Positions 21,627-37,831 of a DNA stretch of 37,831 nt are shown one piece after another. Location of the stretch: IMG/VR virus record IMGVR_UViG_3300045988_095268, positions 1 through 37,831 of that record; one strand, 5' to 3'. A model generated the notes under the pieces. It was not told the DNA's origin, made no database searches, and saw nothing but the letters and a program-made list of their open reading frames with translations. Origin of the DNA: a virus. Each line of letters opens with the position of its first letter. The first letter of the stretch is position 1. The translations under genes and the position numbers were made by a program.

Positions 21627-21629
21627 TTT

Positions 21630-22037: not shown

Positions 22038-22041
22038 GGTG

Positions 22042-22988: not shown

Positions 22989-23783
22989 ATGATTTATCAA
23001 AAACAGGAGTGCAATGGTGCGCTCTATCAGATGTGCCTTTATTCCATGGGCACGATGCCGGGCATGTCGCCCAGGCAGAGGGCGGGCAGACGGCGGACAA
23101 CCGAGAAGGCCAAGCAGGAGATCAACCGGCGACAGCGCAAATGGCGGCTGATGCAGCTAATCAACGCCAATTTTGTGAGCGGTCGGGATCTGTTTGTTTG
23201 CTTGACGTATGCGCCGGAGGCGTCCAGAGCGCGGGCTTTGGAGAAATTCCATGCGAAGATGAAAAAGGCGTATGCAAAGATTGGCCTTAAATACAAGTAC
23301 ATAGCAGTAACAGAGGAGCACGACATGGACGGCGAGCCGGTGCGGCTGCACCATCACCTGATTCTCAGCGGCGCGCACGGCGTGCAGCTGGCCGATGTGG
23401 TGCGTGATTGCTGGGCTTCCGGTCTGGCCGATGTGCGGACTCTGCGCGAGGGCGCGGACTTTTTTGAGGACACCGCCATCTATCTGCTCAAGGAGGACAG
23501 CCACAAGGGCAAGGGCGCCCGCCGGTACTCCACCAGCCGCAATTTGACCCCGCCTGCAGAGCCGGTTCGGCTCAGACTGGGCGAGGAGGAGGAGGCCGAA
23601 GTGCCGCCCGGCGTGAAGATCATCGAACATGTGCAGAACGCGAATGAGTTCGGCAGGTATGAGGTTATGGTCGGCCGCATTTACAATCAGGCGGCGTTTG
23701 ACGCATGGTGGCAGATACAGCGGCGCAGGGCTGCTCCCGATCCGTGGGAACGGCTGCGCAGGAGACGGCAAAGAAAAGTTTAA
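22989..23783 (+). CDS. HUH-superfamily rolling-circle replication initiator (Rep, 264 aa)
   Basis: Motif I FVCLTYA, motif II (HUH) VRLHHHLILSG, motif III (YxxK) TAIYLLKE. RBS agaggtgatttATG. Confidence 0.7.
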   Translation: MIYQKQECNGALYQMCLYSMGTMPGMSPRQRAGRRRTTEKAKQEINRRQRKWRLMQLINANFVSGRDLFVCLTYAPEASRARALEKFHAKMKKAYAKIGLKYKYIAVTEEHDMDGEPVRLHHHLILSGAHGVQLADVVRDCWASGLADVRTLREGADFFEDTAIYLLKEDSHKGKGARRYSTSRNLTPPAEPVRLRLGEEEEAEVPPGVKIIEHVQNANEFGRYEVMVGRIYNQAAFDAWWQIQRRRAAPDPWERLRRRRQRKV

Positions 23784-23987
23784 GATATCGGCGGCCGGGT
23801 CCGCCTGACAGCCTTGTAGGGGGTCTAACAATTCCCCTGCAGTTTGTCGGAGAGGTTCGGACGAATGAATACAGAATGTAATCACATTACTATTCGTACT
23901 CTTTCAAAGGACGGAGCGCGCGGAAGCGCGTAACGGTGACGGCAGTAAGGCGGGAAATCTGCGCGGCAGGAGGTGCAGCACGGCACA

Positions 23988-24353
23988 ATGACAAAAGACA
24001 GGTTGAAACAGGTGGAAAGCCTGGTCTGTGAACTGGAAGAAGAAAGAGAACGGTTTGCGCGGGAGGCGCGGCACCACAAGCGGATCGAGGAGACTTACGG
24101 CGTCGGCTGTCTGTTTGGCCGGGATGCGCTGGACGCGGCACGGGATCGGCTGCAGGCCATTGAGGCAGAGTGCCAGGATGAGCGCGACACGGTGCGGCAG
24201 TGGATCGACAGCGTTTCCGACTCCATGACGCGGCGTGCGCTGCGGCTGCGGTATCTGGACGGCAAGAGCTGGAGCGAGTGCGCCCGGCGGATGGGGTATG
24301 CGGATGAGAGCGGGCCACGCAAGCTGGTGGAGCGACACCTGCGGATGGGGTGA
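23988..24353 (+). CDS. Sigma-70 region-4-like HTH protein, candidate late-gene transcriptional activator (121 aa)
   Basis: The C-terminus MTRRALRLRYLDGKSWSECARRMGYADESGPRKLVERHL is a region-4-type HTH. The N-terminus is coiled coil. It lies upstream of the packaging/structural module. The start (ATG 23988 versus GTG 23973) is uncertain. Confidence 0.6.
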   Translation: MTKDRLKQVESLVCELEEERERFAREARHHKRIEETYGVGCLFGRDALDAARDRLQAIEAECQDERDTVRQWIDSVSDSMTRRALRLRYLDGKSWSECARRMGYADESGPRKLVERHLRMG

Positions 24354-24438
24354 CGCGCATGCACCCCGTCCGCTTTGCTGTGCCCTGCGGTGTAAAAATA
24401 GGGCATGCCTCAACGTGCAGGAGCGGAAAAACGGCGGA

Positions 24439-24509
24439 AACGTAAAAATAAAGTCGGTTTTACGTTATATTTACAAGTGTAAAGGCAAATCAAGAATGTA
24501 AACTTTACA
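24439..24509. promoter_or_regulatory. Cluster of three short palindromes immediately upstream of the small serine recombinase gene (res-like / autoregulatory candidate)
   Basis: aacgtaaaa-N10-ttttacgtt (24439-24466), TTTACAagTGTAAA (24470-24483) and TGTAAAcTTTACA (24497-24509). Confidence 0.5.
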
Positions 24510-24534
24510 AACTATCAACAGGAGTGTGGACAAA

Positions 24535-25113
24535 ATGAAAATTGGCTATGTGCGTGTGTCAACGGTCGAGCAGAACGAGGCGCGGCAGGTGGAGGCGCTG
24601 CAAAAACACGATATCGAGCGTTGGTACATTGAGAAGATCAGCGGCAAAAATCTGGATCGCCCCAAGCTGCAGGAGATGCTCGACTTTGCGCGTGAGGGCG
24701 ATACCGTGTATGTGCTCGACTGGTCGCGTATCAGCCGCAGTACGAAGGACCTGCTGGAACTGGTTGATCGGCTCGGCGCGAAGGGCGTGCACCTGTACAG
24801 CCTGAAAGAAAACTTTGACACCTCGACACCGCACGGACGTATGGTGCTGACCATCCTCGGCGCGATCAACGAATTTGAACGAGCAAACATGCTCGAACGT
24901 CAGAGGGAAGGCGTTGCGATTGCCAAGCGCGAGGGCAAGTACAAGGGGAGGAAAAAGACGGAGATTGACGATGTTGCCGGTGCATATCACGCCTGGGTAA
25001 CACGGCACAAGAGCAAGGCAACGATCGCACGGGAAAACGGGATCAGCAGACCAACCTTAGACCGGCTGCTCAAGGAGTACGAGCGGGAGCATATTGCAAA
25101 ATCAAATCTGTAA
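24535..25113 (+). CDS. Small serine recombinase (resolvase/invertase family, 192 aa)
   Basis: MKIGYVRVSTVEQNEARQ (catalytic Ser), DTVYVLDWSRISRS, MVLTILGAINEFERANMLERQREG, and a C-terminal HTH SKATIARENGISRPTLDRLL. The ATG at 24535 sits 10 nt after CAGGAG. Confidence 0.9.
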   Translation: MKIGYVRVSTVEQNEARQVEALQKHDIERWYIEKISGKNLDRPKLQEMLDFAREGDTVYVLDWSRISRSTKDLLELVDRLGAKGVHLYSLKENFDTSTPHGRMVLTILGAINEFERANMLERQREGVAIAKREGKYKGRKKTEIDDVAGAYHAWVTRHKSKATIARENGISRPTLDRLLKEYEREHIAKSNL

Positions 25114-25119
25114 ATCACA

Positions 25120-25161
25120 AGCGCTTGGGCGGGCTGTATGGCTCGCCTGAGCGCTTTTTTT
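25120..25161 (+). terminator. Rho-independent terminator after the small recombinase gene
   Basis: agcgcttgggcg...cgcctgagcgct imperfect hairpin followed by a T7 run. Confidence 0.7.
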
Positions 25162-25248
25162 ACTGCGCGAACAAAGTTGTCCGTTTTGTCCGATTTTCCC
25201 GATTATACTTGTATTCAGCAAAACAAGACACGCGCGGGAGGTGATTGG

Positions 25249-25773
25249 ATGCAGCAGCGAGGTAGTAAGTATGACCAGAAAATCAAAGACGAGGCGCTGG
25301 CACTGATTGCGTCCGGCGTGAAAATCTCCAATGCGTCGGTGCGGCTCGGAATCCCCAAGAGCACGTTATCGGATTGGGTACATACCCAGAACGAGAGCGA
25401 CGAGGACGGTGTGGCTGCACGGCGGGAGATACGCCGCAAGCAGATTGCACGGTGCGAGAAGATCGGGGACAAGGTGCTCCGGGCGCTCGACCGCAAGGCT
25501 GAGGCCGCCGCGAAGGACACCCGGACCATCAATGACGGACTGGCGGTGCTTGAGAAAGCGGCCAAGGACGGCGTGATCGCGCTGAGTGAGGCCGAGGTGG
25601 CAAGTCTCAGAAACGTTGTAAGCGATTACACCGGCGTCGGCCTGCGCGAGCTGGCCGGAACCATGAAGGATGTTGCGGCAAGACAGGAAACGCTGGAGCA
25701 GCACCTCGGCGAGAAGGACGGCACCGGTGTGCAGATCACGTTTGTGGATGGTGCGGAGGAACTGGCAGAATGA
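25249..25773 (+). CDS. terS: Terminase small subunit (174 aa), HTH-containing
   Basis: RBS gggaggtgattggATG. N-terminal HTH ASVRLGIPKSTLSDWV. Its stop overlaps the TerL start (ATGA). Confidence 0.6.
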   Translation: MQQRGSKYDQKIKDEALALIASGVKISNASVRLGIPKSTLSDWVHTQNESDEDGVAARREIRRKQIARCEKIGDKVLRALDRKAEAAAKDTRTINDGLAVLEKAAKDGVIALSEAEVASLRNVVSDYTGVGLRELAGTMKDVAARQETLEQHLGEKDGTGVQITFVDGAEELAE

Positions 25774-27116
25774 ACAGCTTTGTGATTCCGAAACCCTATC
25801 CGAAACAGGTTGAGTTTATGAAAAGCCGGTCGCATTACACGGCTTATGGCGGCTCACGAGGCGGCGGCAAGAGCTTTGTCGCACGACTCAAGGCCAATAT
25901 GCTGTGTTTGAGGTATGACGGCATTCAGATTCTGTTTATGCGCCGGACGTACCCGGAGTTGCGGGAAAACCACATTATTCCGGCTATGCGGGAGCTAAAA
26001 GGTATTGCGGAGTACAAGAGCGCGGACAAGGCGTTTGAGTTTCCAAACGGCTCACGGCTCAAGTTTGGTTACTGCCGGAACGACAGCGATTTACTCCAGT
26101 ACCAAGGACAGGCTTATGACGTTATTTTTCTGGAGGAGTGCACGCTTTTCCCTGAGAACGTTTTTACAACAATGACCGAGAGCAACCGCTCATCCGGTCA
26201 GATGCGGGAGTTCTTCCCGCCGAGAATGTACCTGACTTGCAACCCCGGCGGCGTTGGGCATGCCTGGTTTAAGCGGTTGTTTATCGATCGCGATTATGTC
26301 AAGCAGGAACGATCTGAGGACTACACGTTCATTCAGGCCACGGTCTATGACAATCCGTGGCTTGTCAAAAACTCACCTAACTATGTGCAGTCGCTCGAAA
26401 ATCTGCCCGAGGACCGCAAGCGGGCGATGCTGTACGGCGATTGGGACGTATTCGAGGGACAGTATTTCCCCGAGTTCCGGCGCGAGACGCACGTCTGTGA
26501 GGCTTTTCCGATTCCGGAGCACTGGACGCGGTACAAGGCGCTCGACTACGGCTTTGATATGCTGGCCGTCGGCTGGTTTGCCGTGGATGAGAACGGCACT
26601 GCGTATCTTTACAAGGAATTCTGCGAGGGCAAGGATTTAGGAGAAGGACACGATGGACTTATATTATCTGACGCGGCTAACGCCATCCTGGAGCGCTCGG
26701 ACGAGTTGGAACGCGATGCGATTACCTTTGCACCGCCGGACCTCTGGAACCGGCGGCAGGACACCGGACGCAGCGCGGCAGACCGCTTTGCGGAATGCGG
26801 TGTGTTTATGGAGAAAGCAAAGAACGACCGCGTGCTCGGCTGGCTCGACCTGAAGGAATACCTGAAGGTACGCAAGGACACCGGCAAGCCGAGTTTGATG
26901 ATCTTCTCCAACTGCACGCAGACCATCAAGAGCCTGCCGATGCTGCTGCACGATGAGAAGCACCCGGATGATGTGGCAAACGATCCGCACGAGTACACCC
27001 ACCCGGCGGACATGCTGCGGTACTTTGTGGCCGGCCGCCCGATCGCGGCGAGTGAGCCGAAGGAGTTTAACGAACTGACTACCGAGGAGGAAATGGGAAA
27101 TGTATTTAGCTATTAG
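25770..27116 (+). CDS. terL: Terminase large subunit (448 aa)
   Basis: Walker A YGGSRGGGKSF, Walker B-like YDVIFLEECT, and a C-terminal nuclease region with acidic motifs (ALDYGFD; DDVANDPHEY). Confidence 0.9.
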   Translation: MNSFVIPKPYPKQVEFMKSRSHYTAYGGSRGGGKSFVARLKANMLCLRYDGIQILFMRRTYPELRENHIIPAMRELKGIAEYKSADKAFEFPNGSRLKFGYCRNDSDLLQYQGQAYDVIFLEECTLFPENVFTTMTESNRSSGQMREFFPPRMYLTCNPGGVGHAWFKRLFIDRDYVKQERSEDYTFIQATVYDNPWLVKNSPNYVQSLENLPEDRKRAMLYGDWDVFEGQYFPEFRRETHVCEAFPIPEHWTRYKALDYGFDMLAVGWFAVDENGTAYLYKEFCEGKDLGEGHDGLILSDAANAILERSDELERDAITFAPPDLWNRRQDTGRSAADRFAECGVFMEKAKNDRVLGWLDLKEYLKVRKDTGKPSLMIFSNCTQTIKSLPMLLHDEKHPDDVANDPHEYTHPADMLRYFVAGRPIAASEPKEFNELTTEEEMGNVFSY

Positions 27117-27660
27117 CGCCGTTGCGGCGATGTGTGCTTTTCTGGCGGCTGTGCAGACCCGAAACGCCAAGCGCTTGGGCGAGGATTTGCGGCAAAAGAC
27201 CGTGGAAGCGGAATCCTTTCAGCTGACTGCGCGGACGATGGAGGAACGCTTGCACACCGAGGAGGCGGCGCGCGCTCAGCTTGCGGACCGCATTACCAAG
27301 GTGGAGACCGCCCTGCGGGAGAGTGAGGACACGGCCTGCCGGTTGCGGCAGGAGCTGCAGACCGGACGCAAAGCTGCGAAGGAGCTGCAGGAAGAACTCG
27401 ACTCCACCAAGGATGCACACGACGCGGCAATCAGCGCGATGTGGAGCGCTCGCAACGAGGTTGATAATCTCAAGCAGGAGCGCCGCAAGCTGAATGAGGC
27501 GCTCATCACCGAGCGGGAGACCGCAGAGCGCTGGAAAGAGGAATTTCTCAAGGAACAGGCGTACCGCCTGAGCACCGAGGGCCGCATTATGCGTGAAGTC
27601 AACAATCTACTCCGTTATGACGGCACCGCCCACGGGCAGGAGGAATTAAGCGATGAATGA
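27100..27660 (+). CDS. N-terminally membrane-anchored long coiled-coil protein (186 aa) between TerL and portal
   Basis: TM segment MYLAISAVAAMCAFLAAV followed by continuous charged heptad-like sequence. Overlaps TerL by 17 nt and the portal gene by 8 nt. Confidence 0.6.
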   Translation: MYLAISAVAAMCAFLAAVQTRNAKRLGEDLRQKTVEAESFQLTARTMEERLHTEEAARAQLADRITKVETALRESEDTACRLRQELQTGRKAAKELQEELDSTKDAHDAAISAMWSARNEVDNLKQERRKLNEALITERETAERWKEEFLKEQAYRLSTEGRIMREVNNLLRYDGTAHGQEELSDE

Positions 27661-29248
27661 GCAGAAAATCACGCTCACGGCTGACAGGGTGCAAGCCGAG
27701 TACGAAAAAGGTGTGCAGTACAACACCGGTATCGGGCTGTACGAGAACGTAAAACAGTGCGAGAACTTTGTGGAAGGGAAGCAGTGGGAAGGACTCAAGA
27801 GCAAGAACCTGCGTCCGATCACGATGAACGTGCTCGACCCGATCGTGCATTACAAGGTTGCGCAGATCGTTTCCAATGACGTTGATCAGGAGGTTGAGCC
27901 TTTCCTTCCGGATGAGCAGGCCGAGTATGCGGCGAAAATCCTTGAGCAGAGCATTGACCGCGTGGTGGAGCGCACCAAGCTGAAAAGTAAGCACCACATG
28001 GTGCTGCGCGACGCCTGCGTGGATGGTGACGCGGCGCTGTATTTCTACTTTGATGCAAGCAAGCAGTCCGGTTTTGGCGGGGTGCAGGGCGAAATCTGCG
28101 CCGAGCAGGTGATGAACACGAACATTCTGTTCGGCAATCCGAGCAATTCCAACGTGCAGGAGCAGCCGTACCTTATCATTGTGCGTCGCCGGCCGGTATC
28201 TGAAATCCGCAAGGACGCGAAGCGGCTCGGCTGCAAGGAATGGGAGACCATTGAGGGCGAGTCCGACGGCCTGTACAAGGGTGATGATGAGCAGAACAAT
28301 AGCGACAGTCTCGGCAATGAGCTTGTGCGGTTTTGGAAATCCGAAGACGGCCGCGTGCACTACTGCCGCTCCTGCGGGCGTGTGATGATCGAGCAGGATG
28401 TGGCGACGGAAATGACACTCTATCCCGTCGCGTACATGAGCTGGAAGCCGCGGAAGAACTGCTATCACGGCGTGATGGAGATCAAACCGCTCATCAACAC
28501 GCAGATTGAGATCAACAAGCAGTGGACGGCGCTTGCGCTCATGCTGCGGAATAATGCTATACCGAAATTGGTATACAACCTCAATAAGTTCCCCAAGGGC
28601 TGGGATCCGGATGCGACTTCTATCGGCGTGACCGGCGACGTGAAGGACGCGCTGACCGGCGTTGCGGGCTCGATGCCCATTCCCACTGAGGCAACCGGTA
28701 TTACGTCCACCATGACGGACGCGCTCAAGAGTGTTTCCGGTGCCAATGACGCGGCGCTCGGCAACGTCAAGAATCCGGAGAACAGCAGTGCAATCGTAGC
28801 GGTGCAGACCGCGAACGCTGCGCCGCTTGCGCTGACCAAGATCGCATATTACCAGTTTGTCGAGGACTACGAGCGGGTGCTCATCGACATGATGCATGCC
28901 TATTACGGTATGCGTCAGGTCAAGATCACGGACGAGGCGACAGACCCGGAAACCGGTGACACGCAGGAGCAGACCCGCGTGGAGATGTTCGACTTCGGCA
29001 CTCTCTCGGTCGAGGCCCTCGACCTAAACATCCATATCGGCGAGGCGAGCTACTGGAGCCGCATTTTGCAGATCTCGACGCTCAACAACCTGCAGACGGC
29101 GGGTGTTATGCCCAATATGGTTGAGTTCCTCAGCCGCATGCCGGAAGGCTCGGTTAAGGATCAGGAAGGTTTGGTCGAGGCTGCAAAGAGAGTGCAGCAG
29201 CAGGCCAGCATGCAGCAGGCATTACAGGGAGGTTTAACGAATGGATAA
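27653..29248 (+). CDS. Portal protein (531 aa)
   Basis: Supported by size, position after the terminase, and the N-terminal NFVEGKQWEG motif seen in podovirus-type head-tail connectors. The 432-aa antisense ORF is judged spurious. Confidence 0.75.
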   Translation: MNEQKITLTADRVQAEYEKGVQYNTGIGLYENVKQCENFVEGKQWEGLKSKNLRPITMNVLDPIVHYKVAQIVSNDVDQEVEPFLPDEQAEYAAKILEQSIDRVVERTKLKSKHHMVLRDACVDGDAALYFYFDASKQSGFGGVQGEICAEQVMNTNILFGNPSNSNVQEQPYLIIVRRRPVSEIRKDAKRLGCKEWETIEGESDGLYKGDDEQNNSDSLGNELVRFWKSEDGRVHYCRSCGRVMIEQDVATEMTLYPVAYMSWKPRKNCYHGVMEIKPLINTQIEINKQWTALALMLRNNAIPKLVYNLNKFPKGWDPDATSIGVTGDVKDALTGVAGSMPIPTEATGITSTMTDALKSVSGANDAALGNVKNPENSSAIVAVQTANAAPLALTKIAYYQFVEDYERVLIDMMHAYYGMRQVKITDEATDPETGDTQEQTRVEMFDFGTLSVEALDLNIHIGEASYWSRILQISTLNNLQTAGVMPNMVEFLSRMPEGSVKDQEGLVEAAKRVQQQASMQQALQGGLTNG

Positions 29249-29477
29249 CACGAATGAGAGCAAGGCGGAACGCTTTGTAAGACTGGCAGAGCCGCGCGTT
29301 TCCCGCGCGTGCAAGGCAATTAGTCTGATCGGCAATTTTGCTACGGGTGACTATGAGTTCACTGAGCAGCAGGTCGCTGCGATGTTTGCGGCGATGCAGG
29401 AGGAACTGGACGCGCAGAGAGCGAAGTTTAAGAAGGGCTCGGAGCGAAAGTTCCGGTTTGATGGAGGGACACGATGA
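29241..29477 (+). CDS. Small hypothetical head-module protein (78 aa)
   Basis: Overlaps the portal stop and is coupled to the next ORF (ATGA). No motif recognised. Confidence 0.5.
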   Translation: MDNTNESKAERFVRLAEPRVSRACKAISLIGNFATGDYEFTEQQVAAMFAAMQEELDAQRAKFKKGSERKFRFDGGTR

Positions 29478-29815
29478 AAGTTTTTGAAGATTTACGGCTT
29501 TCCGATGTGACGGAGCTGGCGACGAGTGCAGATTATAGAGATCGCTTTCTCGGAGAATACCTGGAAACGAAGATCCGCTATGAAAAACTGCATAAAATGC
29601 TGATCAAAGCAGAAGCCGGCAAGCTGGACTTCACGCCGACGTGCCCGATCGGCCTCTTGGAGTCGCAGGCGCGCTGCATGGGAAATTATCTTCATGCGCT
29701 CGAAGTTCGTGCTCAGTACGAGAACCTTGATCTGACTTTCCTTATCAAGTCTGCACTGACAGATTTAGAGAGAGCCGAAAGCGACTGCCCGACAGTATGC
29801 TGTTCGACTGACTGA
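29474..29815 (+). CDS. Hypothetical helical protein (113 aa), possibly of the crAss001_48/SaV-like small phage protein type
   Basis: The pattern DRFLGEYLETKIRYEKLHKML...LLESQARCMGNYLHALEVRA resembles that family. The assignment is weak. Confidence 0.4.
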   Translation: MKVFEDLRLSDVTELATSADYRDRFLGEYLETKIRYEKLHKMLIKAEAGKLDFTPTCPIGLLESQARCMGNYLHALEVRAQYENLDLTFLIKSALTDLERAESDCPTVCCSTD

Positions 29816-29823
29816 CAGCATTT

Positions 29824-30221
29824 CCGGCGTTCAGCCTAACGGAACGCTGCATTCCTGAACGTGGTGCTTCATCACGCAAGGGTTCACCCGCCGATTTGGC
29901 GGGTGACAGCGGATCCGCAGCTATTCATGCGGCGTTAGGCTGAACGCCGGAGCAAACAAAAGAATATTTCCGGCGTTCGGACGGGCGGGAGCTGACCTCA
30001 CCCGCCCCATTGATTCCCCTTATTTCTTTCTGATGGCGGGCACCCTCGTTCGGGTCGAGGGCGTCCGTCCGAGCGCCGGAATACGATATTTTCCTGCACT
30101 GCGGCGGGCGTGGGATTCTCGCCATATTATCCCGCGTCCGGGTTACGCATTCCCCGTGCGTGCAAGGATACAAGCGGGTGCAGTACCAGCGGAACGGTGC
30201 TGCGTCCGCCGGAGTGCAGGA
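29824..30221 (+). ncRNA. Candidate large structured noncoding RNA (or structured DNA element). Three tandem ~115-130-nt modules, each closed by a 16-18-bp stem.
   Basis: Closing stems: 29824-29841 pairs with 29933-29950 (18/18). 29968-29984 pairs with 30065-30081 (17 bp, one G-U). 30092-30107 pairs with 30206-30221 (15/16). Internal hairpins: 29885-29907 (tcacccgcc/ggcgggtga), 29985-30005, 30043-30061, 30145-30161, 30180-30203. There is no credible ORF in the 466-nt gap. The strand is assumed from the surrounding late operon. Confidence 0.45.
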
Positions 30222-30281
30222 ACACACGATAAACACACGGCAATGAGACTCAAGTCTTTTGCATATAGGAGGATTGTCTAA

Positions 30282-31274
30282 ATGGATTGGAAAACCAGCA
30301 ATCATATGGACGGAAGCGAGATCCGTGACAGTATCGGTTTACAGTATTTTGCCGAGGACGGCAATACATCCGACACCGGCGCGGACATGGACGGTTTTAA
30401 CGGCGACGATTTCCTTGCGGCGCTTGAAGGCAATGACGATCTGGAAAACCAGCAGACCGCCGCCGAGGGTGCAGAGGAGACCGTGCAGGACGGTGCGGAA
30501 AACCAGCGCGCCGAAGAGCAGCAGGAAGAACCGGAGAATCAGCCGCCAGAGGGCGGCGAAGTACCGCCGGAAACGGCAGAACAGCCGGTACAGACCGTGC
30601 CCCTCGTCTACAACGGACAGCAGATCCTGCTGCCGGCAGACGCAGTGCAGGCCCTGACCGGTGCACTCGGCGCGAACCCGGTCGAACTGCTCCAGAAGGG
30701 CATGAATTATGACCGCAAGGCCGAGCGAGAAATGCGCGTACTGGATCAGTACGCCGAGGCCGCTGGCATGAACCGGCAGCAGTACCTTGAACAGCTGGAG
30801 GGCGCACGCAATGAGCAGCTGCTTTCGGCAGAAATTGAGAAGTGTCGCGCAGAGTTTCCGGAAACCCCGGATGCGGCGCTTAAAGCAATCGCCGAGGGCC
30901 GCATGGCTTCCCAGCGTGCAGCCGCGGCACAGGCCGCCGAACAGCAGCGCGCACAGCTTACCGCCATGCAGCAGCGCATTGATCAGACTGTTGAACAGGC
31001 ACGAGAAGAAGCCGATGCACGCGCGTGGGAAGAATATGTTTCACTCTCTGGCGTGAAAAGTTTCGAGGAAGTGCCAAAACGCGTGCTTGAATTGGTGCAG
31101 CAGGAAGCTATGACGCCCGTTGCCGCGCACTGGCGCTATCAGGCTGAACAGAATGCACAGGCTGTGCAGATCGAAAAGAAGAACAACCAGAACAAAATGA
31201 CAAGCCCGGGAAGTGTGCAGGGCAATAAGGGCGACACGAGCGACCCGTTCCTGCGCGGCTTGCTGGGACTGTAA
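30282..31274 (+). CDS. Scaffolding protein (330 aa)
   Basis: Very acidic N-terminus, Ala/Gln/Glu-rich helical body, position immediately upstream of the major capsid gene. RBS ataggaggattgtctaaATG. Confidence 0.65.
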   Translation: MDWKTSNHMDGSEIRDSIGLQYFAEDGNTSDTGADMDGFNGDDFLAALEGNDDLENQQTAAEGAEETVQDGAENQRAEEQQEEPENQPPEGGEVPPETAEQPVQTVPLVYNGQQILLPADAVQALTGALGANPVELLQKGMNYDRKAEREMRVLDQYAEAAGMNRQQYLEQLEGARNEQLLSAEIEKCRAEFPETPDAALKAIAEGRMASQRAAAAQAAEQQRAQLTAMQQRIDQTVEQAREEADARAWEEYVSLSGVKSFEEVPKRVLELVQQEAMTPVAAHWRYQAEQNAQAVQIEKKNNQNKMTSPGSVQGNKGDTSDPFLRGLLGL

Positions 31275-31292
31275 AAGGAGTGACAATATAAT

Positions 31293-32348
31293 ATGCCTAT
31301 TTACCTTACTGAGCAGTATTCAAAAGCTGTAGAAAAGCTGTATACCCATACCTCGTTCCTGCGTCCGCACTGCAAGGCGCACGTTGACATGATCGGCAAG
31401 AAAACCTGCAAGGTTTACCAGATCCTCACCAGCGAGCTGAACGACTACAAGCGAGAGGGCAAGGACCGCTACGGCGTGCCGAATGATGTACAGGACATCG
31501 TACACGAGTACACCATCACGCAGGACAAGTCGTTTACCGCCACCGTAGACAAGGGCGACGGCTCTCAGCAGGCTATCAGCAACAAGGCCGGCCAGTATCT
31601 GCGCCAGCAGATCTCCGAGAAGTGCGTGCCGTACGGCGACAAATACGGTTTCAGCCGCATTGCACGATTCGGCCATATTCAGGGTGTTGCTGCTGCACCG
31701 ACCAAGAGCGACATTATCTCGACCGTCTATGATGCTGCCGCCTATATGGACAATCACTATGTACCGGATGATGGCCGTATCCTTTTTGTCCGCGTGAGTG
31801 ACTACAAGAAGATCATCCTCTCGGACGAGTGGGTCAAGCTGGACAATCTGGCGGGCAAGCAGCTGCCTACCGGCGTTGTCGGTCAGGTTGCGGGCTTTAC
31901 TGTTGTAAAGGTTCCCGACCGACTGTTCCCGACCGACGTTTATCTGATGGCAATTCACGAGCAGGCGCTTGCGTTCCCGTATACCATTGACGATACCAAA
32001 ATCCACATCGATCCCCCCGGCACTTCCGGTTCTCTGGTTGAGGGCCGTCAGATTTTCGATCTGTTCGTGCTTTCCAGCCGTGCGGATTCGGTTGTCGTTG
32101 TGGCTAAGGCGGCAAGCCAGCAGGCGTGCACCGTAGCGATCGCTTCGCACAGTGCGACCGTTACGGCGGCAGATGCGGACGAAATCTGGTACACGCTGGA
32201 CGGCTCGGACCCGCGCTTCTCCGCAAATCGCATGCTGGTCGCAAGCGGCGGCACGGTTGCAACGACCGCAGGCCAGACCATCCGCGTGGTTGCGTTCGGC
32301 AAGGCCGGCAAGCTGACTTCGAATGTGGCTGAGGCTACGGATAAGTAA
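31293..32348 (+). CDS. Major capsid protein (351 aa), HK97-fold N4-gp56-like type, with a C-terminal Ig-like extension
   Basis: Follows the scaffold gene, has a strong RBS (aaaaggag) and is followed by a strong terminator. The overall pattern resembles the N4-gp56 capsid family. The tail CTVAIASHSATVTAADADEIWYTLDGSDPRFS...IRVVAFGKAGKLTS resembles chitobiase-C/Fn3-associated Ig-like domains. Confidence 0.7.
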   Translation: MPIYLTEQYSKAVEKLYTHTSFLRPHCKAHVDMIGKKTCKVYQILTSELNDYKREGKDRYGVPNDVQDIVHEYTITQDKSFTATVDKGDGSQQAISNKAGQYLRQQISEKCVPYGDKYGFSRIARFGHIQGVAAAPTKSDIISTVYDAAAYMDNHYVPDDGRILFVRVSDYKKIILSDEWVKLDNLAGKQLPTGVVGQVAGFTVVKVPDRLFPTDVYLMAIHEQALAFPYTIDDTKIHIDPPGTSGSLVEGRQIFDLFVLSSRADSVVVVAKAASQQACTVAIASHSATVTAADADEIWYTLDGSDPRFSANRMLVASGGTVATTAGQTIRVVAFGKAGKLTSNVAEATDK

Positions 32349-32356
32349 AGACCCAG

Positions 32357-32388
32357 GAGGGCGGGCGGCTGCCCGCCCTCTGTTTGTT
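32357..32388 (+). terminator. Strong hairpin terminator/attenuator after the capsid gene
   Basis: gagggcgggc-ggct-gcccgccctc forms a 10-bp GC stem followed by tgtttgtt. Confidence 0.8.
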
Positions 32389-32401
32389 AGGAGGTGAGAG
32401 C

Positions 32402-32779
32402 GTGGCGACGACTATTAAACGCATTTACACGCTGGCACTGGCGAAAATCATTGAAGCGCCCGGAACAGACGTTGACTTTGACAGCTACTCGCCGACACTG
32501 CTTGACAGCCTGCTTGTGGAGGCGTTGCCGTACGAGAACGCCATCCGCGCACAGCGCGGTGACGCGGAACTGACAAGCACGCCGGAGGTCACGACGATTG
32601 ACAGCACGGTGCTCGACTGGGACGACCGGATCACGCGCGTTGCGCTGCCGTGGGGTCTGGCGTCCGCCTTGCTGTTCGACGATGAGAACCGCAAGGCCGA
32701 AAGCGTGATGTTTCGCAATGAGTTTGTATCGGCATTGGAGGACGCTGCGCCTGCTGTGCCGGATTACGGGGAGGAGTAA
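32402..32779 (+). CDS. Hypothetical head-tail adaptor/completion-type protein (125 aa)
   Basis: GTG at 32402 sits 7 nt after AGGAGG. The call rests only on position between the capsid and tail genes. Confidence 0.4.
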   Translation: MATTIKRIYTLALAKIIEAPGTDVDFDSYSPTLLDSLLVEALPYENAIRAQRGDAELTSTPEVTTIDSTVLDWDDRITRVALPWGLASALLFDDENRKAESVMFRNEFVSALEDAAPAVPDYGEE

Positions 32780-32782
32780 GCT

Positions 32783-34702
32783 ATGCCGCGTAAGGTTACG
32801 GTGCCGGATTTTACCGAATCCGATGAAGGCACCAAGCACTATAAGCGCTTCAAGGGTTTGGATTACTCAACCGACGAGACCCAGATCGATGACTCACGCT
32901 CGCCGCGTGCGGTAAACGTTATCGCAGACGAGGGCGGCTTTCCCGAGCGGCGCTATGGATGGCGCACGCTGCTGCGGTTTACAGATGCGGACGGCAAGTC
33001 TGTTCCTGTCGCCGGTATTTTTCCCTATGAGAACGACAATGACGAGGAAAACCTGACGCTCATCGTCCATGCGGGCAGCAAGCTGTATGCCGTAAAGCTC
33101 GATGCAGACTACAAGGAAGTAAAGGACAGCCGCAAGGAGCTGCTGGACAAGCTGAACAGTGGCGGCCGCAGCCAGGGCTTTTACATGCACGGCAAGCTGT
33201 TCATCCTGACCGGCGAGCACTACGTTGTTTATGACGGCAAAACCGCCGTACATGCGACAGACGATAACGCCTACTGTCCGCTGACCAGCTATCAGCGCAA
33301 GGCGGCAGGCGGCGGCGAGACCTACGAAAACGTTAATATGCTGTGCAAGTGGCGCAAGAACCGCTTTATCGGAGACGGCACAAGCACGACCTATCAGCTG
33401 GACGTGACCGGCATTGACAAGGACTGCACGCCGACGGCGGCCTATCTAAACGGCAGTGCAATTACTGTGAAAAGCTACGATGCGGAGAAGGGCACGGTGA
33501 CGTTTGAGACAGCACCGAGCGCGCCGGAGAACGCCGGTATCTCCAATTTTGAAGTAAAGTTCGCCAAGACCACCGAGGACCGGAAGAAGATCCTCGGCTG
33601 CACCATCTTTGCGATTTACGGCATGGACGGCAGCAGCAACCGTGTTTTTGTTTCCGGCAACAAGGAGCACGCGGCTATGGAATGGTTTTCCGGCCTGTCT
33701 GACCCGACATATTTCCCCGACATTAACTATTCTGTCGTGGGTTCGAGTGATTTTCCGATTATGTGCTACCTGAAAGCACAAGGTGAATTACTGCTCATCA
33801 AGAAGGACAACCGACAGGAGGGCACGATCTGGCACCACTCGGGAGCAATGCTGAACGATGTGGCAACCTTTCCGCTGAAAGAGGGCGTGCCCGGCTACGG
33901 TGCGATTGCAAAGTATTCCTCGGCAAACCTCAACGATGATCCGCTGTATCTCAGTCCGCGCGGCGTATATGCGCCGACTACGACGTTTTACAACAACATG
34001 CAGGTGCGGCAGTTATTCTGCCGGTCGAGACGTGTCAACCCCAAGCTGTGCAAGGAGCGCAGACTTGCGGACGCTGTAGCCGCCTGCTGGCGCGGCTGGT
34101 ATGTGCTTGTGATCGACGGCTGCGCGTATGTGGCAGACGGCAATCAGGACAAGGCAGACAACGGGTATGAATGGTACTACTGGACGAACGTGCCCGCAAA
34201 GGTGCTCTGTTCACACGAACAGGCGCTGTATTTCGGCACTGAGGACGGCAGAGTTTGCCGGTTTAATGACGATCTTGTAGACGAGAACAATGATATTATG
34301 ATGAACGCGTTCTCGGACGACGGCGCGGCCATTCACACCGAGTGGGCTACCAAGCTCGACACGATGAACACGCCGATGATACTGAAAACTATGCCCAAGC
34401 GCGGCAGCGGCGTACACCTCAAGGCGTACACGCGCAGTGCGGTTGAGATTTGGGTGCGGCTTGAGACTGACCACGGCACGCTGATGAAGCGCGTGACGGC
34501 AGACCGGCTGAATTTTCACTACATCGGATTTGAACGCTTTCCGTTCGGAACGGTAGTAAACTCCATTATTCCGTTCCTGTTCAAGCGCAAGGGCTGGAAG
34601 GCGATTCAGGTCATTCTGCAGTCCGACACGGTGGACGAGGGCTTCGGCGTGCACGAGGTTGTCATTCGGTACTTTATCGCAAAGTACGCAAAGAGACAGT
34701 GA
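32783..34702 (+). CDS. Large tail structural protein (639 aa; tubular-tail/nozzle-type candidate)
   Basis: Supported by size, beta-rich composition, and position between the adaptor-like gene and the fibre genes in a genome without tube/sheath/tape-measure genes. Confidence 0.45.
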   Translation: MPRKVTVPDFTESDEGTKHYKRFKGLDYSTDETQIDDSRSPRAVNVIADEGGFPERRYGWRTLLRFTDADGKSVPVAGIFPYENDNDEENLTLIVHAGSKLYAVKLDADYKEVKDSRKELLDKLNSGGRSQGFYMHGKLFILTGEHYVVYDGKTAVHATDDNAYCPLTSYQRKAAGGGETYENVNMLCKWRKNRFIGDGTSTTYQLDVTGIDKDCTPTAAYLNGSAITVKSYDAEKGTVTFETAPSAPENAGISNFEVKFAKTTEDRKKILGCTIFAIYGMDGSSNRVFVSGNKEHAAMEWFSGLSDPTYFPDINYSVVGSSDFPIMCYLKAQGELLLIKKDNRQEGTIWHHSGAMLNDVATFPLKEGVPGYGAIAKYSSANLNDDPLYLSPRGVYAPTTTFYNNMQVRQLFCRSRRVNPKLCKERRLADAVAACWRGWYVLVIDGCAYVADGNQDKADNGYEWYYWTNVPAKVLCSHEQALYFGTEDGRVCRFNDDLVDENNDIMMNAFSDDGAAIHTEWATKLDTMNTPMILKTMPKRGSGVHLKAYTRSAVEIWVRLETDHGTLMKRVTADRLNFHYIGFERFPFGTVVNSIIPFLFKRKGWKAIQVILQSDTVDEGFGVHEVVIRYFIAKYAKRQ

Positions 34703-34711
34703 GGTGAGGAC

Positions 34712-35746
34712 ATGACGTTTGATGAAAGCAAAATTTCAGCCGAAAAGGCGGCAGAGACCGGCGTGCAGAGCCAGCCGGACGCGCTGACCGGCTCGGCCGA
34801 GGAAAACAAGAAGGTTTTTGATCTGCTGCCGCTGCTTATTATCGAGAGGCTTAACAAGCTGATCGAGGCATTGCAGGCCGCAAACAGCGCCGGACAGATC
34901 GGCGCCGCGGCGTTCCCCAACGTGGCCGGCTGCTCGGTTCAGGAGCAGCTGCAGATCATTCAGAAGAACCTCGAGGACTACCGGGACGCGGTAAAGGTGA
35001 ACGGCGCGGAAAACGTCGGCATGACACCGTTTGACGGCGTGAACGCAAACACCGTGCAGGCGGCGCTCGAGCAGCTGCAGGCAAACCTTGTGCAGTATAT
35101 CAATACTGTTAAATCCGCAGAGGGCGCGGGCAGGGTCGGCATTACGCCGTTCAAGGGCGTGACGAGCGGGACCGTGCAGGCTGCACTTGAGGAAATCCGC
35201 AGACAGATCGACGATGTAACGGCGGGCGTTATCCCGGACTACGGCGTCACCACTATCAAGCTGGCGCTGCAGGCCGTGACGGCGGACAGGCTGGCGCAGG
35301 ATGTGCTTGATATGATCGAGGCCGCAGAGCCGGCACGCAGCACCAACGAGCTGGACGATTACACAATGGAGACCGGCCGCTTTGTCAACGCCGGTGCGGG
35401 ATGGAACACCTTCCGGTTCCGGCATGCGTTTGAGGGCGTGCCGGTCCTGACGGTGACGCCGAAGGAATTCAGCGGTTTTTGCGAGATTAAGAACGTGACT
35501 GCGGAAGGATTCCTCTATTGCCTGCGTCAGCCGAGTTTGCAGGGCGGCAGTGCGACGAAGGGCACGGTGACAACGGCTACCGGCTATATCGGCTCGGACA
35601 CCGGCTCGTCACCCAGTCACAGTCAGATCACCTATGTTTCCGGTGTGACGCTGCCGCAGGTCGTTCTGCCGACGCTCGGCACGATTACAACGGCAGAGAA
35701 GATCGAAATGGATTATATCGCTATTGAGTTTGGAGGTGACGAGTAA
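34712..35746 (+). CDS. Tail fibre / receptor-binding protein (344 aa) with N-terminal fibre repeats and a C-terminal H-type-lectin-like domain
   Basis: Three repeats of the G..(I/V)G..PF.GV...TVQAALE.L type (QIGAAAFPNVAGCSVQEQLQ, NVGMTPFDGVNANTVQAALEQLQ, RVGITPFKGVTSGTVQAALEEIR). The C-terminus GWNTFRFRHAFEGVPVLTVTP...IKNVTAEGFLY is lectin-like. Confidence 0.6.
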   Translation: MTFDESKISAEKAAETGVQSQPDALTGSAEENKKVFDLLPLLIIERLNKLIEALQAANSAGQIGAAAFPNVAGCSVQEQLQIIQKNLEDYRDAVKVNGAENVGMTPFDGVNANTVQAALEQLQANLVQYINTVKSAEGAGRVGITPFKGVTSGTVQAALEEIRRQIDDVTAGVIPDYGVTTIKLALQAVTADRLAQDVLDMIEAAEPARSTNELDDYTMETGRFVNAGAGWNTFRFRHAFEGVPVLTVTPKEFSGFCEIKNVTAEGFLYCLRQPSLQGGSATKGTVTTATGYIGSDTGSSPSHSQITYVSGVTLPQVVLPTLGTITTAEKIEMDYIAIEFGGDE

Positions 35747-37128
35747 TGCTCAAGAAGATTCAGCAGGATTTCAGCTATTACTCGCATGAGTTTAAGGATA
35801 ACTACCGAAAAGGCGTACACCGTCTGCGCACCATCCTTGCCAGCAGGGCACAGGCACAGGCGTTTGTAAGCAATGCGGGCGGCACTGCGGTGGTGCTCGG
35901 CTATGAGCCGAGCGCGCCGGATAAAAACGCACAGGAACTGTATGCGCTGCTTGCGGCTTCGCCGTATATCGACGATGCGGTGCAGACGTTTTTGGGGAGC
36001 ATTTACGAGGCGGGCGCGGAAAGCCAGGATGCGATGTATTCGGATAGTGCCCGCTGTCTGGAAATCCTGCACGATCCAGTAATGGCCCGTGCCGCAGGCG
36101 CAGGCGCGGTAAGCGCCGGAAAATGGATCGCAACTCTGGCGGGACAGAGTTGCAATTTGTACAGGGATATGAACGCGGTTGCCGCCAGCGATATCGCTAT
36201 GACGGCAGTGGCCGCAAGCGAGACTGCGATGGCGGCTGTCATCGGCAACGCAACGGCGCTTAACGCTGTTGTAACTTCTCATGTTGCACTCAATGCTGTT
36301 GCCGCAAGCGAGACTGCGATGGCGGCTGTCATCGGCAACGCAACGGCGCTCAATGTTGTTGCAACCTCTCAGGCTGCGATGAACGCGGTAGCTGCAAGCG
36401 AAACTGCTATGACGGCGCTCATTGCAAACACCGCAGCGTTCAATACGGTGGTGACTTCTCATGTAGCGATGAACGCGGTAGCTTCGTCCTATGTGGCTGT
36501 GGCCGCAGTCTACGAGAGCGCGGTTGCGGTTGAAGCTGTCAAGGCAAATGAAACAGCCTGGGCTACCCTTACGGGAGCGTCCAGCGCAGTTATGGGCAAG
36601 GCCGCGGCGAAGCTGGCCGGTTTGAATCCTGCGGACTATGCCGACATGGATGCGATTGCTGCATCCTCGACCGCTATGGCGGCGATTGCGTCGTCCTCGA
36701 CCGCTATGGCGGCAATCATCGGGAACAGCACTGCGCTTAACGCAGTTGTTTCGTCCTCGACCGCTATGGCGGCGATTGCGTCGTCCTCGACCGCTATGGC
36801 GGCCGTTGCATCGTCCAACACGGCCCGCACAGCTATCACGAACTCTGCAACGGCAAAGAACGCCCTTGCCTCCAGCCCTTTGAAAACAACCGTGACAAAG
36901 GGCAACGGAAACGGTTGGGAGAACCGTACCATCCGCAATGGCATGGGATATCTAATCAGTTGCTACAACGCAAACAGCGGTGGAGAGGCTGGATCTACTT
37001 GGTACAAGTTGGATGGGGCGCAAACCAGCCAGCCCGCAGGCACTACAAATGTGGGGAAATTTTTCACATCTTCCTTGGCAATTTACTGGTGGTCTTCTAC
37101 CTCCAGCGTGACCTATATCCCCTGTTAA
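35746..37128 (+). CDS. Tail fibre protein (460 aa) with a 10-residue-periodic Ala/Ser/Thr repeat shaft and a small C-terminal head domain (expressed cassette A)
   Basis: Its ATG overlaps the previous stop (TAATG), with ggaggtgacgag upstream. About 60% of the protein consists of xxS.TAMxAV-type decamers. The C-terminus is NGNGWENRT...STSSVTYIPC. Confidence 0.7.
   Translation: MLKKIQQDFSYYSHEFKDNYRKGVHRLRTILASRAQAQAFVSNAGGTAVVLGYEPSAPDKNAQELYALLAASPYIDDAVQTFLGSIYEAGAESQDAMYSDSARCLEILHDPVMARAAGAGAVSAGKWIATLAGQSCNLYRDMNAVAASDIAMTAVAASETAMAAVIGNATALNAVVTSHVALNAVAASETAMAAVIGNATALNVVATSQAAMNAVAASETAMTALIANTAAFNTVVTSHVAMNAVASSYVAVAAVYESAVAVEAVKANETAWATLTGASSAVMGKAAAKLAGLNPADYADMDAIAASSTAMAAIASSSTAMAAIIGNSTALNAVVSSSTAMAAIASSSTAMAAVASSNTARTAITNSATAKNALASSPLKTTVTKGNGNGWENRTIRNGMGYLISCYNANSGGEAGSTWYKLDGAQTSQPAGTTNVGKFFTSSLAIYWWSSTSSVTYIPC
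36211..36350 (+). repeat. 90-bp-period tandem coding repeats in the fibre shaft. Two 50-bp perfect copies at 36211-36260 and 36301-36350.
   Basis: gccgcaagcgagactgcgatggcggctgtcatcggcaacgcaacggcgct is repeated exactly. A third, diverged copy starts at 36391. Confidence 0.9.
36664..36803. repeat. Inverted-repeat partner block in fibre gene A. Two copies (36664-36713, 36751-36803) of a 50-53-bp sequence whose exact reverse complement lies in cassette B.
   Basis: tcctcgaccgctatggcggcgattgcgtcgtcctcgaccgctatggcggc. The reverse complement of 37622-37674 equals 36751-36803 (53/53). Confidence 0.95.
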
Positions 37129-37145
37129 AATCGCCGCTCTCAGCT

Positions 37146-37302
37146 ACGCATTAACATTCTAAGACGTACCACGCAACTTTATATAGGCGCTTATGAGGCA
37201 GTTTAAGCTGAATGTTACGTCTGAATACTGCAAAACAACCGAGAAAGCCGGTGAATACGGCGTTATCGCCGCGGTTGCGTGCGCATTAGAATGTTAATGC
37301 GT
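37146..37302. repeat. 17-bp perfect inverted repeats (37146-37162 and 37286-37302) bracketing the spacer between the two convergent fibre cassettes
   Basis: acgcattaacattctaa versus ttagaatgttaatgcgt. The right copy is internally palindromic (cgcatta-gaatgt-taatgcg). A third GAATGTTA copy lies at 37211-37218. Confidence 0.9.
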
Positions 37303-37308
37303 CCTTGC

Positions 37309-37831
37309 TCAGCACTGAAAATAGTCGATCCAATCATCTCTATCAGTATCATTCTTCATGTAGGTAGCAATCTTTTTGTACTGCTTAAAGTAAGCATATT
37401 TACCCTTATAGCTATCCCACTTCGGCTTGCTGCCATCGGACAGGGTGGCATATCCGTATTGAGACGTATCGAAAGCATTATCGTTGCTAATCTGAAGAAT
37501 AATAAACTTGCCGGACAGGCTTGCGCTGGCACCACGCATGCGCTTTTTCTTCGCATAAAGTGCATCTAAAGCCGTTGTGCTGGCAGCAATAGCGCTCAAA
37601 GCTGTACTCGACGCTGCAATCGCCGCCATAGCGGTCGAGGACGACGCAATCGCCGCCATAGCGGTCGAGGACGACGCAATCGCCGCCATAGCGGTCTGGG
37701 ACGACGCGACTGCCGCCATGTTGGCATAGTCTGCCGGGTTCAGACCGGCGGCGCCGACAGCATACTTTGCAGTTGCCATGTCGGATGCTGCGATTGCGTC
37801 CTTCGCTACCTGCGACTTCTCGATAGCCGCC
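37309..37831 (-). CDS. Alternative tail-fibre C-terminal cassette B. The ORF continues across the circular junction to an ATG at bases 79-77, has no RBS, and is probably silent in this orientation.
   Basis: It encodes (M)AAIEKSQVAKDAIAASDMATAKYAVGAAGLNPADYANMAAVASSQTAMAAIASSSTAMAAIASSSTAMAAIAASSTAL... and then a unique 85-aa C-terminus ending IDYFQC. The block is homologous to residues ~285-330 of fibre A. There is no Shine-Dalgarno before either ATG. Confidence 0.65.
   Translation of the reverse strand, partial: AAIEKSQVAKDAIAASDMATAKYAVGAAGLNPADYANMAAVASSQTAMAAIASSSTAMAAIASSSTAMAAIAASSTALSAIAASTTALDALYAKKKRMRGASASLSGKFIILQISNDNAFDTSQYGYATLSDGSKPKWDSYKGKYAYFKQYKKIATYMKNDTDRDDWIDYFQC
37616..37705. 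repeat. Three tandem 30-bp units in cassette B (two perfect, one with 2 mismatches). These are the inverted partners of the fibre A repeats.
   Basis: gcaatcgccgccatagcggtcgaggacgac occurs twice (37616-37645, 37646-37675). gcaatcgccgccatagcggtctgggacgac follows at 37676-37705. Confidence 0.95.
37755..37831. repeat. Terminal direct repeat, copy 2 (identical to 1..77)
   Basis: Exact 77/77 identity with the window start. Confidence 0.9.

Follow-up and report, generated by a model that had tools for sequence, protein, structure and literature searches.

Why does the tail-fibre gene of a phage genome face, across a short spacer, a second open reading frame (ORF) with a different fibre end on the opposite strand, next to the gene of a tyrosine recombinase? 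The question is raised by the IMG/VR virus record IMGVR_UViG_3300045988_095268, of which all 37,831 nucleotides were analyzed; this stretch is called the window in the following. The 77 bases at its start recur unchanged at its end, hence the contig is circular with a true length of 37,754 bp, and the locus extends over the junction. A first-pass annotation had suggested a candidate host-range switch by inversion. Our analysis indicates that the locus is probably a tail-fibre shufflon driven by site-specific recombination, with the adjacent Xer-like enzyme as the proposed recombinase. Positions of the features are collected in Table 1.

The fibre gene, gene A, is the final gene of the structural module and matches phrog_7809 'tail fiber protein' (E 8e-26). 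It encodes a constant N-terminus, then shaft modules, then the A head ending in VTYIPC. Convergent to gene A lies the silent arm with ORF B on the minus strand (174 aa), which starts with the ATG at 79-77, crosses the junction and stops at 37309-37311. This arm begins at the outermost site, b0, beside the recombinase gene and has no visible Shine-Dalgarno sequence; the in-frame TAG closing it consists of the TA of the b0 flank and the G of the core sequence described below, and positions 72-77 of b0 duplicate 37826-37831. The first-pass annotation had described this convergent pair with the same coordinates, the cysteine at both C-termini (VTYIPC and IDYFQC), the lack of a Shine-Dalgarno sequence before ORF B and the TAG two codons upstream of its ATG, all of which held on re-examination. 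It had called the two C-terminal domains unrelated, in agreement with our profile comparison of the heads, which aligned only the repeat region; its estimate of 75-85 aa for these domains was too short, as they comprise approximately 103-107 aa after the last core. It was also right in placing a XerC/D-type recombinase gene beside cassette B, although the distance is not about 90 bp: the ATG lies 79 nt past the b0 core. The recombinase gene adjoins b0 at this distance in every cassette locus.

Two perfect inverted repeats had been claimed between the arms, and both are exact: positions 36751-36803 are the reverse complement of 37622-37674 (53 bp), and positions 36664-36713 of 37622-37671 (50 bp). 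Imperfect inverted repeats reach up to 125 bp. The repeats between the arms are composed of a 30-bp unit, the invariant part of which is the 15-mer GACCGCTATGGCGGC. Eight perfect copies of this core are present, four on each strand (Table 1). A 13-mer version of the core, with at most one mismatch allowed, gave nine matches in comparison to 0.14 expected from shuffled sequences. Other inverted repeats of at least 22 nt above the chance level were limited to a 24-nt inter-head pair and a 31-nt similarity between b0 and a spacer site. All module boundaries read G ACC GCT ATG RCG GC, translated as (S/Q)TAM(A/T)A. In every locus, the plus copies are on the fibre side and the minus copies on the recombinase side, an arrangement that inversions preserve.

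Related loci (numbered with the prefix L) were collected in two ways. Thirty-four viral contigs were obtained by the fibre protein, and the A N-terminus, the A middle, the A head, the B head, the B stub and the recombinase were mapped on them; a further 15 viral and 78 metagenome stretches were obtained by an exact 22-mer spanning the outermost site. The nearest relative, L011, has a recombinase that is 99% identical in protein and carries window positions 36742-37659 in inverted orientation at 98.5% nucleotide identity, with both flanks collinear. In this genome the A N-terminus is joined to the B head and the A head is in the silent position. The B head was also found on the A N-terminal part, with a silent, convergent A head, in L007, L008, L012, L018 and L037, while L001 has the same arrangement as the window. 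The A head, a member of head cluster H2, is expressed in some genomes and silent in others. Across all loci, 66 unique configurations were distinguished, with about 15 genuine head types and two heads per genome. Six head pairs were seen in both states: H1/H2, the pair of A-type and B-type heads, at 9:8, H1/H3 at 2:4, H1/H5 at 1:3, H6/H9 at 2:1, H8/H12 at 1:2 and H2/H4 at 1:1. Oppositely oriented repeats thus flank a segment that occurs in both orientations. The first-pass annotation had predicted that inversion between the repeats would fuse the A N-terminus in frame to the B head, a fusion carried by L011 and the others, and had suggested a comparison of related genomes for both orientations, which the six head pairs provide. 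The multiple crossover registers it proposed were recovered as well: several are in use among the relatives, including the further core copy at 72-86 that it had noticed around the start of ORF B. Both arrangements may coexist in one population, with frequent switching between them.

The same differences could alternatively have accumulated in the course of evolution: the rearrangements would then be rare, or exchanges between co-infecting phages, and ORF B a stored or decaying paralogue. Even between the closest genomes the divergence is about 1.8%, and the tandem repeats alone could cause the contig breaks at the locus. We consider this explanation unlikely, since each of the six head pairs was found in both states and four genomes with a recombinase region at least 98.2% identical have four different configurations, each with another silent arm. 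A decaying paralogue also fits poorly with the perfect repeats of the window, with a core under purifying selection at the DNA level (see below) and with a silent arm whose ORF is intact in 79 of the 83 loci readable to the stop; in the other four it is cut to 18-52 aa.

Two further observations concern the search for both orientations within one sample. The 1596-bp contig L086 (OLNY01031990.1) has the fixed flank of b0 at both ends, inverted, and for this reason cannot stem from a single genome; mixed orientations in the sample would account for it, as would an assembly path induced by the repeats. Same-sample contig pairs (ERZ1034980, ERZ1026780) were considered together with L086 as evidence of heterogeneity and rejected, as different lineages, low coverage and repeat-induced graph paths could also explain them. 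Contig breaks at the site and the chimeric L086 are suggestive only of coexisting orientations. When the protein database was searched with either head, all the cluster representatives obtained were at most 180 aa long. A reading of B as always silent was dropped, because the expressed A head likewise gives only short representatives; clusters with short representatives conceal long members, e.g., P0151 with 369 aa. Representative length is misleading for this locus, and many contigs also end within the repeats.

The position of the crossover is visible at b0. Its non-coding flank on the recombinase side (...GTGCGCATTA) is fixed, and the module beyond the 15-mer varies by genome: the window and L018 continue with the 43-aa stub, L037 with the start of head A, L001 with a plain repeat unit, and L007, L035 and L057 with other modules. 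In L011 it is the IIGNSTALNAVVSSS (IIGN) module, which in the window follows the plus copy at 36699. Identity between b0 and its partner sites corresponds exactly to the 15-mer. Because the homology ends there, the crossover is site-specific; 15 bp are too short for ordinary homologous recombination, i.e., as RecA substrates.

The 15-mer is also constrained beyond its coding function. Copies were selected by the peptide motif [ST][SQ]TAM[AT]A[AVI], which yielded 352 unique contexts. Within the 15-mer the codons are frozen: ACC in 348, GCT in 349 and RCG in 351 of the 352 contexts, and the G ending the codon before ACC is equally fixed. Synonymous positions just outside vary (TCC 246 versus TCT 100; GCG 156, GCT 87, GCC 57 and GCA 52). 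Two controls show the codon choice for such peptides elsewhere. The constant-region peptide ETAM[AT]A (58 contexts) uses ACT or ACC and all four alanine codons, and the fibres of the recombinase-free L020 and L024 write SSTAMAAV as AGC ACA GCA ATG GCG GCT. In a diverged lineage (L025, L026, L028, L042), a separate variant, G GTT GCT ATG RCG GC, is frozen. The 15-mer is therefore conserved as DNA beyond the peptide, by purifying selection at the DNA level.

These results bear on a second explanation, in which general RecA-type recombination at the long repeats causes the inversions and the Xer-like enzyme does other work, e.g., dimer resolution. The perfect repeats of 50-53 bp, with imperfect ones up to 125 bp, offer a substrate for it, and related recombinases occupy the same slot in phages without cassettes; one of these, phiCp-D, has ParM and may thus be a plasmid prophage. 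We regard RecA-type recombination as very unlikely, for b0 has only 15 bp in common with its partners and is still joined to many modules, and the synonymous freezing covers exactly the 15-mer, not the longer repeats. The sites in the spacer consist of 7-6-7 bp with matched overlaps, as described below. Many direct copies persist in each arm, where free homologous recombination would tend to collapse them, and L020 and L024 have lost the recombinase along with the cassettes.

A shufflon within a coding region has to maintain the reading frame. The segments between the cores comprise 5, 15, 25, 43 or 64 aa and are all in frame, and one module can be expressed in one genome and silent in another. 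Silent in the window, L011 and L018, the 43-aa stub is expressed on the plus strand in L003, L013, L016, L017 and L037; the 64-aa VAASYVAV module belongs to the expressed arm of L008 and L011 and to the silent arm of L136. Expressed fibres in nature have 426-565 aa. In silico, inversion between each of the 16 pairs of plus and minus cores in the window yielded an open fibre of 416-524 aa with the B head at its end, the inverted segments measuring 836-1160 bp; the in-frame fusion put forward in the first-pass annotation, for an inversion of approximately 0.9 kb, was obtained in 16 of 16 cases. For the event 36789 x 72 a silent arm of 112 aa is predicted, which is the length seen in L029/L037/L076 and L082.

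The complete recombination site is proposed from the spacer between the head stops. The pattern CGCATTA-N6-TAATGCG, with up to two mismatches, has only three matches in the genome: b0, which fits the 7-6-7 pattern with two mismatches, and the two sites in the spacer. The overlap of the right spacer site is the reverse complement of that of the left one, hence the two sites are inverted relative to each other. The lineages have conserved 7-bp arms in common and differ in the 6-bp centre, which still matches among the partner sites of one genome: the coding set has the overlaps GACCGC, GGTTGC and GACGGC, the spacer set ACATTC/GAATGT, TCTTCC/GGAAGA, TCTCCC/GGGAGA and ACATCC/GGATGT. A matched asymmetric overlap of 6 bp between conserved arms is standard for the sites of Xer- and Cre-type tyrosine recombinases. 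By comparison with the full sites, the 15-mer would correspond to a 6-bp overlap and a 7-bp arm: in the coding copies GACCGC would be the overlap and TATGRCG the right arm, and their left flank is unrelated. With the 15-mer frozen and the flanks variable, the sites are asymmetric, overlap and one arm being conserved.

Sites of the Hin/Gin type are about 26 bp long with a dyad around a 2-bp centre (12-2-12 in hix and gix sites), and the invertase gene adjoins the invertible segment. That the small serine recombinase of the window would invert the segment in trans, in the manner of Gin, Cin and Min, is highly improbable: the enzyme matches phrog_125 'DNA invertase' (2e-64) and the Pfam domains Resolvase and helix-turn-helix, is present in many shufflon-bearing relatives and lacks an inverted-repeat substrate near its own gene, but this gene is 11.6 kb away from the segment and belongs to a widespread family (303 stretches, including unrelated phages, encode a relative), neither flank of the 15-mer contains a dyad partner, only 15 bp are conserved between unrelated flanks, and the full sites have the 6-bp asymmetric centre typical of tyrosine recombinases. 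Among the best 80 of these 303 stretches, no homologue of at least 55% identity was listed for the near-complete shufflon contigs of L002 (36.9 kb), L027 (35.5 kb) and L015/L029 (34.1 kb), a weak argument in the same direction.

The centre of the spacer is itself invertible. Its 109 bp were found in both orientations relative to the heads, with a ratio of 18:18 relative to the expressed arm. A 34-aa ORF in the spacer (37194..37298) was considered as a gene and dropped, since it is not conserved across loci; promoter and terminator scans around the silent arm and the spacer gave nothing above chance. The spacer may be neutral or may aid the assembly of the recombinase complex. We tentatively consider it possible, short of probable, that one Xer-like recombinase runs two orthogonal inversion circuits within a single 1.2-kb locus, with shared 7-bp arms and different 6-bp overlaps. 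The first circuit would use the half-sites in the translated shaft decapeptide repeat and shuffle fibre length and tip, any plus/minus pair being in frame. The second would use the nested pair with palindromic arms and flip the non-coding 109-bp spacer, with a possible regulatory or synapsis-organizing role.

The adjacent recombinase (326 aa) appears to be intact, as judged from its conserved active-site motifs. It contains the Pfam domain PF00589 (Phage_integrase, 1.2e-41) and SAM-like domains, and its best family matches were XerA/XerC/XerD-like NCBIfam families, a list without an Rci family. The alignment with XerA in the PDB (5hxy, 1e-34) includes the motifs GCRLSE, GKGDKDR, HLLRH and LGH...TTQIY; the catalytic tyrosine is followed by about 16 residues up to the C-terminus. 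Recombinase and cassettes are present or absent together: L020 and L024 share 90-94% nucleotide identity with the window in the backbone and have a simple fibre of 516 or 686 aa in place of window positions 36272..1384, with neither inverted repeats nor recombinase. The genome encodes three recombinases, a large serine integrase, the small serine recombinase and the Xer-like tyrosine recombinase. Because the large serine integrase is present and the tyrosine recombinase is internal to the prophage in L057 (a 1.44-Mb contig), the latter is not needed as integrase. The 7-6-7 anatomy of the sites, the joint loss with the cassettes and the separate serine integrase favour the tyrosine recombinase as catalyst. 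In the upstream region, of which 80 distinct versions were aligned, TATAAT is conserved, and an inverted repeat overlapping it covaries in other lineages (GATGTAT/ATACATC, GGTAT/ATACC); a consensus promoter scan of this region found no full -35/-10 pair. The inverted repeat could be an operator or a 5' hairpin controlling invertase expression.

Besides the divergence between genomes, the long repeats and the second invertase already named, four points weigh against the shufflon reading. In b0 and in the coding copies, the right arm agrees with TAATGCG in only 5 of its 7 bases. AlphaFold2 models of the heads were too poor to back a receptor-binding fold, with predicted local distance difference test values of 43.8 (A) and 59.6 (B), and a Foldseek search of the models in the PDB and BFVD found no match at E <=0.001. 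As the structure predictions failed, the presumed binding of receptors by the heads rests on their position and on the PHROG tail-fibre match. The assignment of the inversions to the adjacent enzyme is circumstantial; it is proposed as the best-supported catalyst. Finally, recombinases with 40-44% identity are encoded by Terrisporobacter phage TPELB_ph1 (L158, 4914-5909) and Clostridium phage phiCp-D (L159, 4908-5885) between the last tail gene and the holin/lysis genes, the same slot as in the window. Inverted cassettes were looked for beside these two genes and none were found, so the recombinase family may have another ancestral role.

In the proposed mechanism, the full site would consist of the 7-bp arm CGCATTA, a 6-bp overlap and a 7-bp TAATGCG-like arm, b0 having both arms. 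Recombination of any plus copy with any minus copy would invert the DNA between them. The distal parts of the two arms would be traded in frame, and the fibre would gain the other head together with a new set and number of shaft modules. Owing to the asymmetry of the coding half-sites, inversions should be favoured over deletions. The 109-bp spacer would be flipped independently by another two full sites, with the same arms and a different overlap.

Table 1. Position of the shufflon components and of further recombination genes in the window; a strand is given where one applies.
Feature	Position	Strand	Description
Tail-fibre gene A, expressed arm	35746..37128	+	460 aa; ORF with GGAGG ribosome-binding site
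A head cassette	36804..37128	+	107 aa and stop; head cluster H2
B head cassette	37309..37621	-	103 aa and stop, ends IDYFQC; silent in the window
Shaft module 'B stub'	37697..37825	-	43 aa, IEKSQ...VASSQ; in the silent arm of the window
Coding half-site c1	36669..36683	+	overlap GACCGC, arm TATGGCG, then GC; encodes (S)TAMAA
Coding half-site c2	36699..36713	+	15-mer copy
Coding half-site c3	36759..36773	+	15-mer copy
Coding half-site c4	36789..36803	+	15-mer copy, last one ahead of the A head
Coding half-site b3	37622..37636	-	15-mer copy
Coding half-site b2	37652..37666	-	15-mer copy
Coding half-site b1	37682..37696	-	15-mer copy
Outermost site b0	72..93	-	CGCATTA-GACCGC-TATGGCG-GC on the minus strand; 15-mer core at 72-86
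Full-type site, left of spacer centre	37147..37166	+	CGCATTA-ACATTC-TAAGACG
Full-type site, right of spacer centre	37282..37301	+	CGCATTA-GAATGT-TAATGCG, perfect 7-6-7
Centre of inter-head spacer, nested invertible element	37170..37278		109 bp; spacer 37129-37308, between the head stops
Xer-like tyrosine recombinase, proposed invertase	166..1146	+	326 aa
Upstream region of the recombinase gene	94..165	+	TATAAT 125-130; GTGTAT 122-127/ATACAC 136-141; GGGG-type ribosome-binding site; 80 distinct upstream regions aligned
Small serine recombinase	24526..25113	+	Hin/Gin-like size; just upstream of the small terminase gene

By its features rather than by recombinase homology, the locus would work like the shufflon of plasmid R64 and the Rin shufflons. 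In R64 (IncI1), Rci acts on pilV, and each sfx site has a variable left arm of 12 bp, a 7-bp core and a right arm of 12 bp; the asymmetry of the site is thought to confine Rci to inversions (PMC11852207). In both systems a tyrosine recombinase gene adjoins an invertible cluster with multiple crossover sites, the sites are asymmetric with only the central overlap and one arm conserved, only inversions between oppositely oriented sites are seen, and the C-terminal specificity part of a surface-recognition protein is switched. The systems differ in the target, a phage tail fibre here and a pilus adhesin in R64, and in the short recombinase (326 aa), which ends a few residues beyond the catalytic tyrosine and so appears to be without the additional C-terminal domain of Rci. 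The conserved stretch of the site comprises 15 bp with a proposed 6-bp overlap, and the sites are translated, inside a decapeptide shaft repeat with many in-frame registers. Whereas R64 has four segments and seven sites, two convergent arms with two heads are present here.

Rin shufflons are known from prophages of Bifidobacterium (PMC6109161) and Eggerthella (PMC8778435). There, too, a phage-encoded armless Xer-like tyrosine recombinase flanks variable C-termini of a receptor-binding protein (PMC6109161), a separate integrase is encoded elsewhere in the genome, the crossover repeats are short and asymmetric with one inside the expressed gene, and inversions were seen across related prophages. 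In contrast, the Rin loci have 3-5 small tandem Rv cassettes, each preceded by an 8-11-bp rix site, whereas the locus of the window has two heads and exchangeable shaft modules, with the sites embedded in a coding repeat. Other differences are the host, Bacillota with a hint to Oscillospirales instead of Actinobacteria, the podovirus-like virion module with a P22-type portal instead of a siphovirus, and the presence of a large serine integrase and of a nested second invertible element. The rix sites TTCCCTAACCC and TTCCGTAT are unrelated to the core found here.

In BV01-like temperate gut phages of Phocaeicola, a recombinase-flanked region of 1-2 kb likewise overlaps the distal part of a tail-fibre gene, and directional short motifs give multiple configurations (PMC13596623). 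That system has three non-homologous cassettes and the 10-bp motif TGGGAGAACT, and belongs to another host phylum and phage group. Every configuration was detected there in reads (PMC13596623), and here the configurations are known from assembled genomes. Tail fibres are among the frequent targets in a survey of programmed inversions (PMC9881135). The classical fibre switches, i.e., the G segment of Mu with Gin, the C segment of P1 with Cin and the Min system of p15B, are similar in that inversion joins a constant N-terminal fibre part to alternative C-termini, in the case of Min also with multiple sites; different from these, the invertible segment of the window contains no fibre-assembly gene. 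Gin, Cin and Min are Hin-family serine recombinases that act on dyad-symmetric sites with an enhancer. The anatomy of the sites described here points to a tyrosine recombinase.

A phage-borne tyrosine-recombinase shufflon acting on a receptor-binding protein was already known, and the locus extends this idea without a new principle. New are the half-sites within a translated shaft repeat with many in-frame registers, the swapping of shaft modules besides the heads, the two convergent arms that draw on a large population-wide pool of heads, and the nested second inversion with the same arms and another overlap, in a different group of phages and hosts. The locus would let a widespread clade of temperate human-gut phages change the tip and the length of the fibre without mutation; one exact 22-mer alone retrieved relatives in 78 metagenome contigs. 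This bears on estimates of host range, on the linkage of phages to hosts in gut viromes and on the poor assembly at the locus. The site grammar is readable, with conserved arms, lineage-specific overlaps, half-sites in codons and two apparently orthogonal site sets for one short Xer-like enzyme, and the inversion-only behaviour of shufflon recombinases becomes directly testable. The system could also supply components for synthetic biology, where the set of shufflon invertases is small (PMC11852207). If the two orthogonal circuits prove true, they would be a natural counterpart of the orthogonality engineered with lox variants and a compact toolkit of an inversion-only recombinase and its sites.

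The phage is temperate and podovirus-like, with a GC content of 56%. Genes for a P22-type portal, the large terminase subunit, a major head protein, an amidase endolysin and a replication initiator are present. The large serine integrase (11497..13041, minus strand; phrog_95, E 1.9e-101) adjoins a helix-turn-helix repressor gene, and the two look like a lysogeny module. Positions 4402-11409 encode a protein of 2335 aa with an M23 peptidase domain at the C-terminus, probably an injected or tail-associated lysin; its relative in L057 has 2990 aa and weak matches to 'large polyvalent protein' domains. A megablast search of the locus against 50,697 phage records revealed no cultured relative at the DNA level, and the closest portal matches, with about 25% identity, were from Bacillus megaterium podophages. 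An exact look-up of fibre A in the assembly collection found no entry, and a search of genome contigs with the recombinase of the window as query gave no match; with the recombinase of L057 as query, relatives of 76-79% were obtained in metagenome-assembled genomes of Faecousia, Bulleidia and Bacillota. Agathobaculum sp. is the annotated source of one homologue of the A head. These matches hint at a host from the Bacillota, more precisely from Oscillospirales such as Agathobaculum.

Some loci among the relatives deviate from the common organization. In IMG genome 2894613022 (L041, 1100-1470; L032, 5990-6350; with L017), the usually constant 84-aa 'A middle' was found in the silent arm beside a degenerate b0, CGCATTA-GGCCGC-AATGAAC, as if the repeats of the constant region had served as a secondary site for a rare exchange. 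L058-L061 (approximately 4600-12400 in L058) contain a small element with an ORF for a B-type head and a b0-like site with the overlap GACGGC. Genes for an Xer-like recombinase, a holin, a LysM lysin, a separate 474-aa tyrosine integrase and repressors are also part of the element, which is devoid of a full fibre or virion module and may be a prophage remnant or a satellite. The single recombinase-free fibres of L024 (6001-8061, 686 aa) and L020 (6001-7551, 516 aa) differ in the copies of the tandem decapeptide AVAASETAMT, 22 versus 3, hence shaft length varies by repeat expansion without a shufflon. The head of these fibres resembles H9, a cassette type of shufflon phages.

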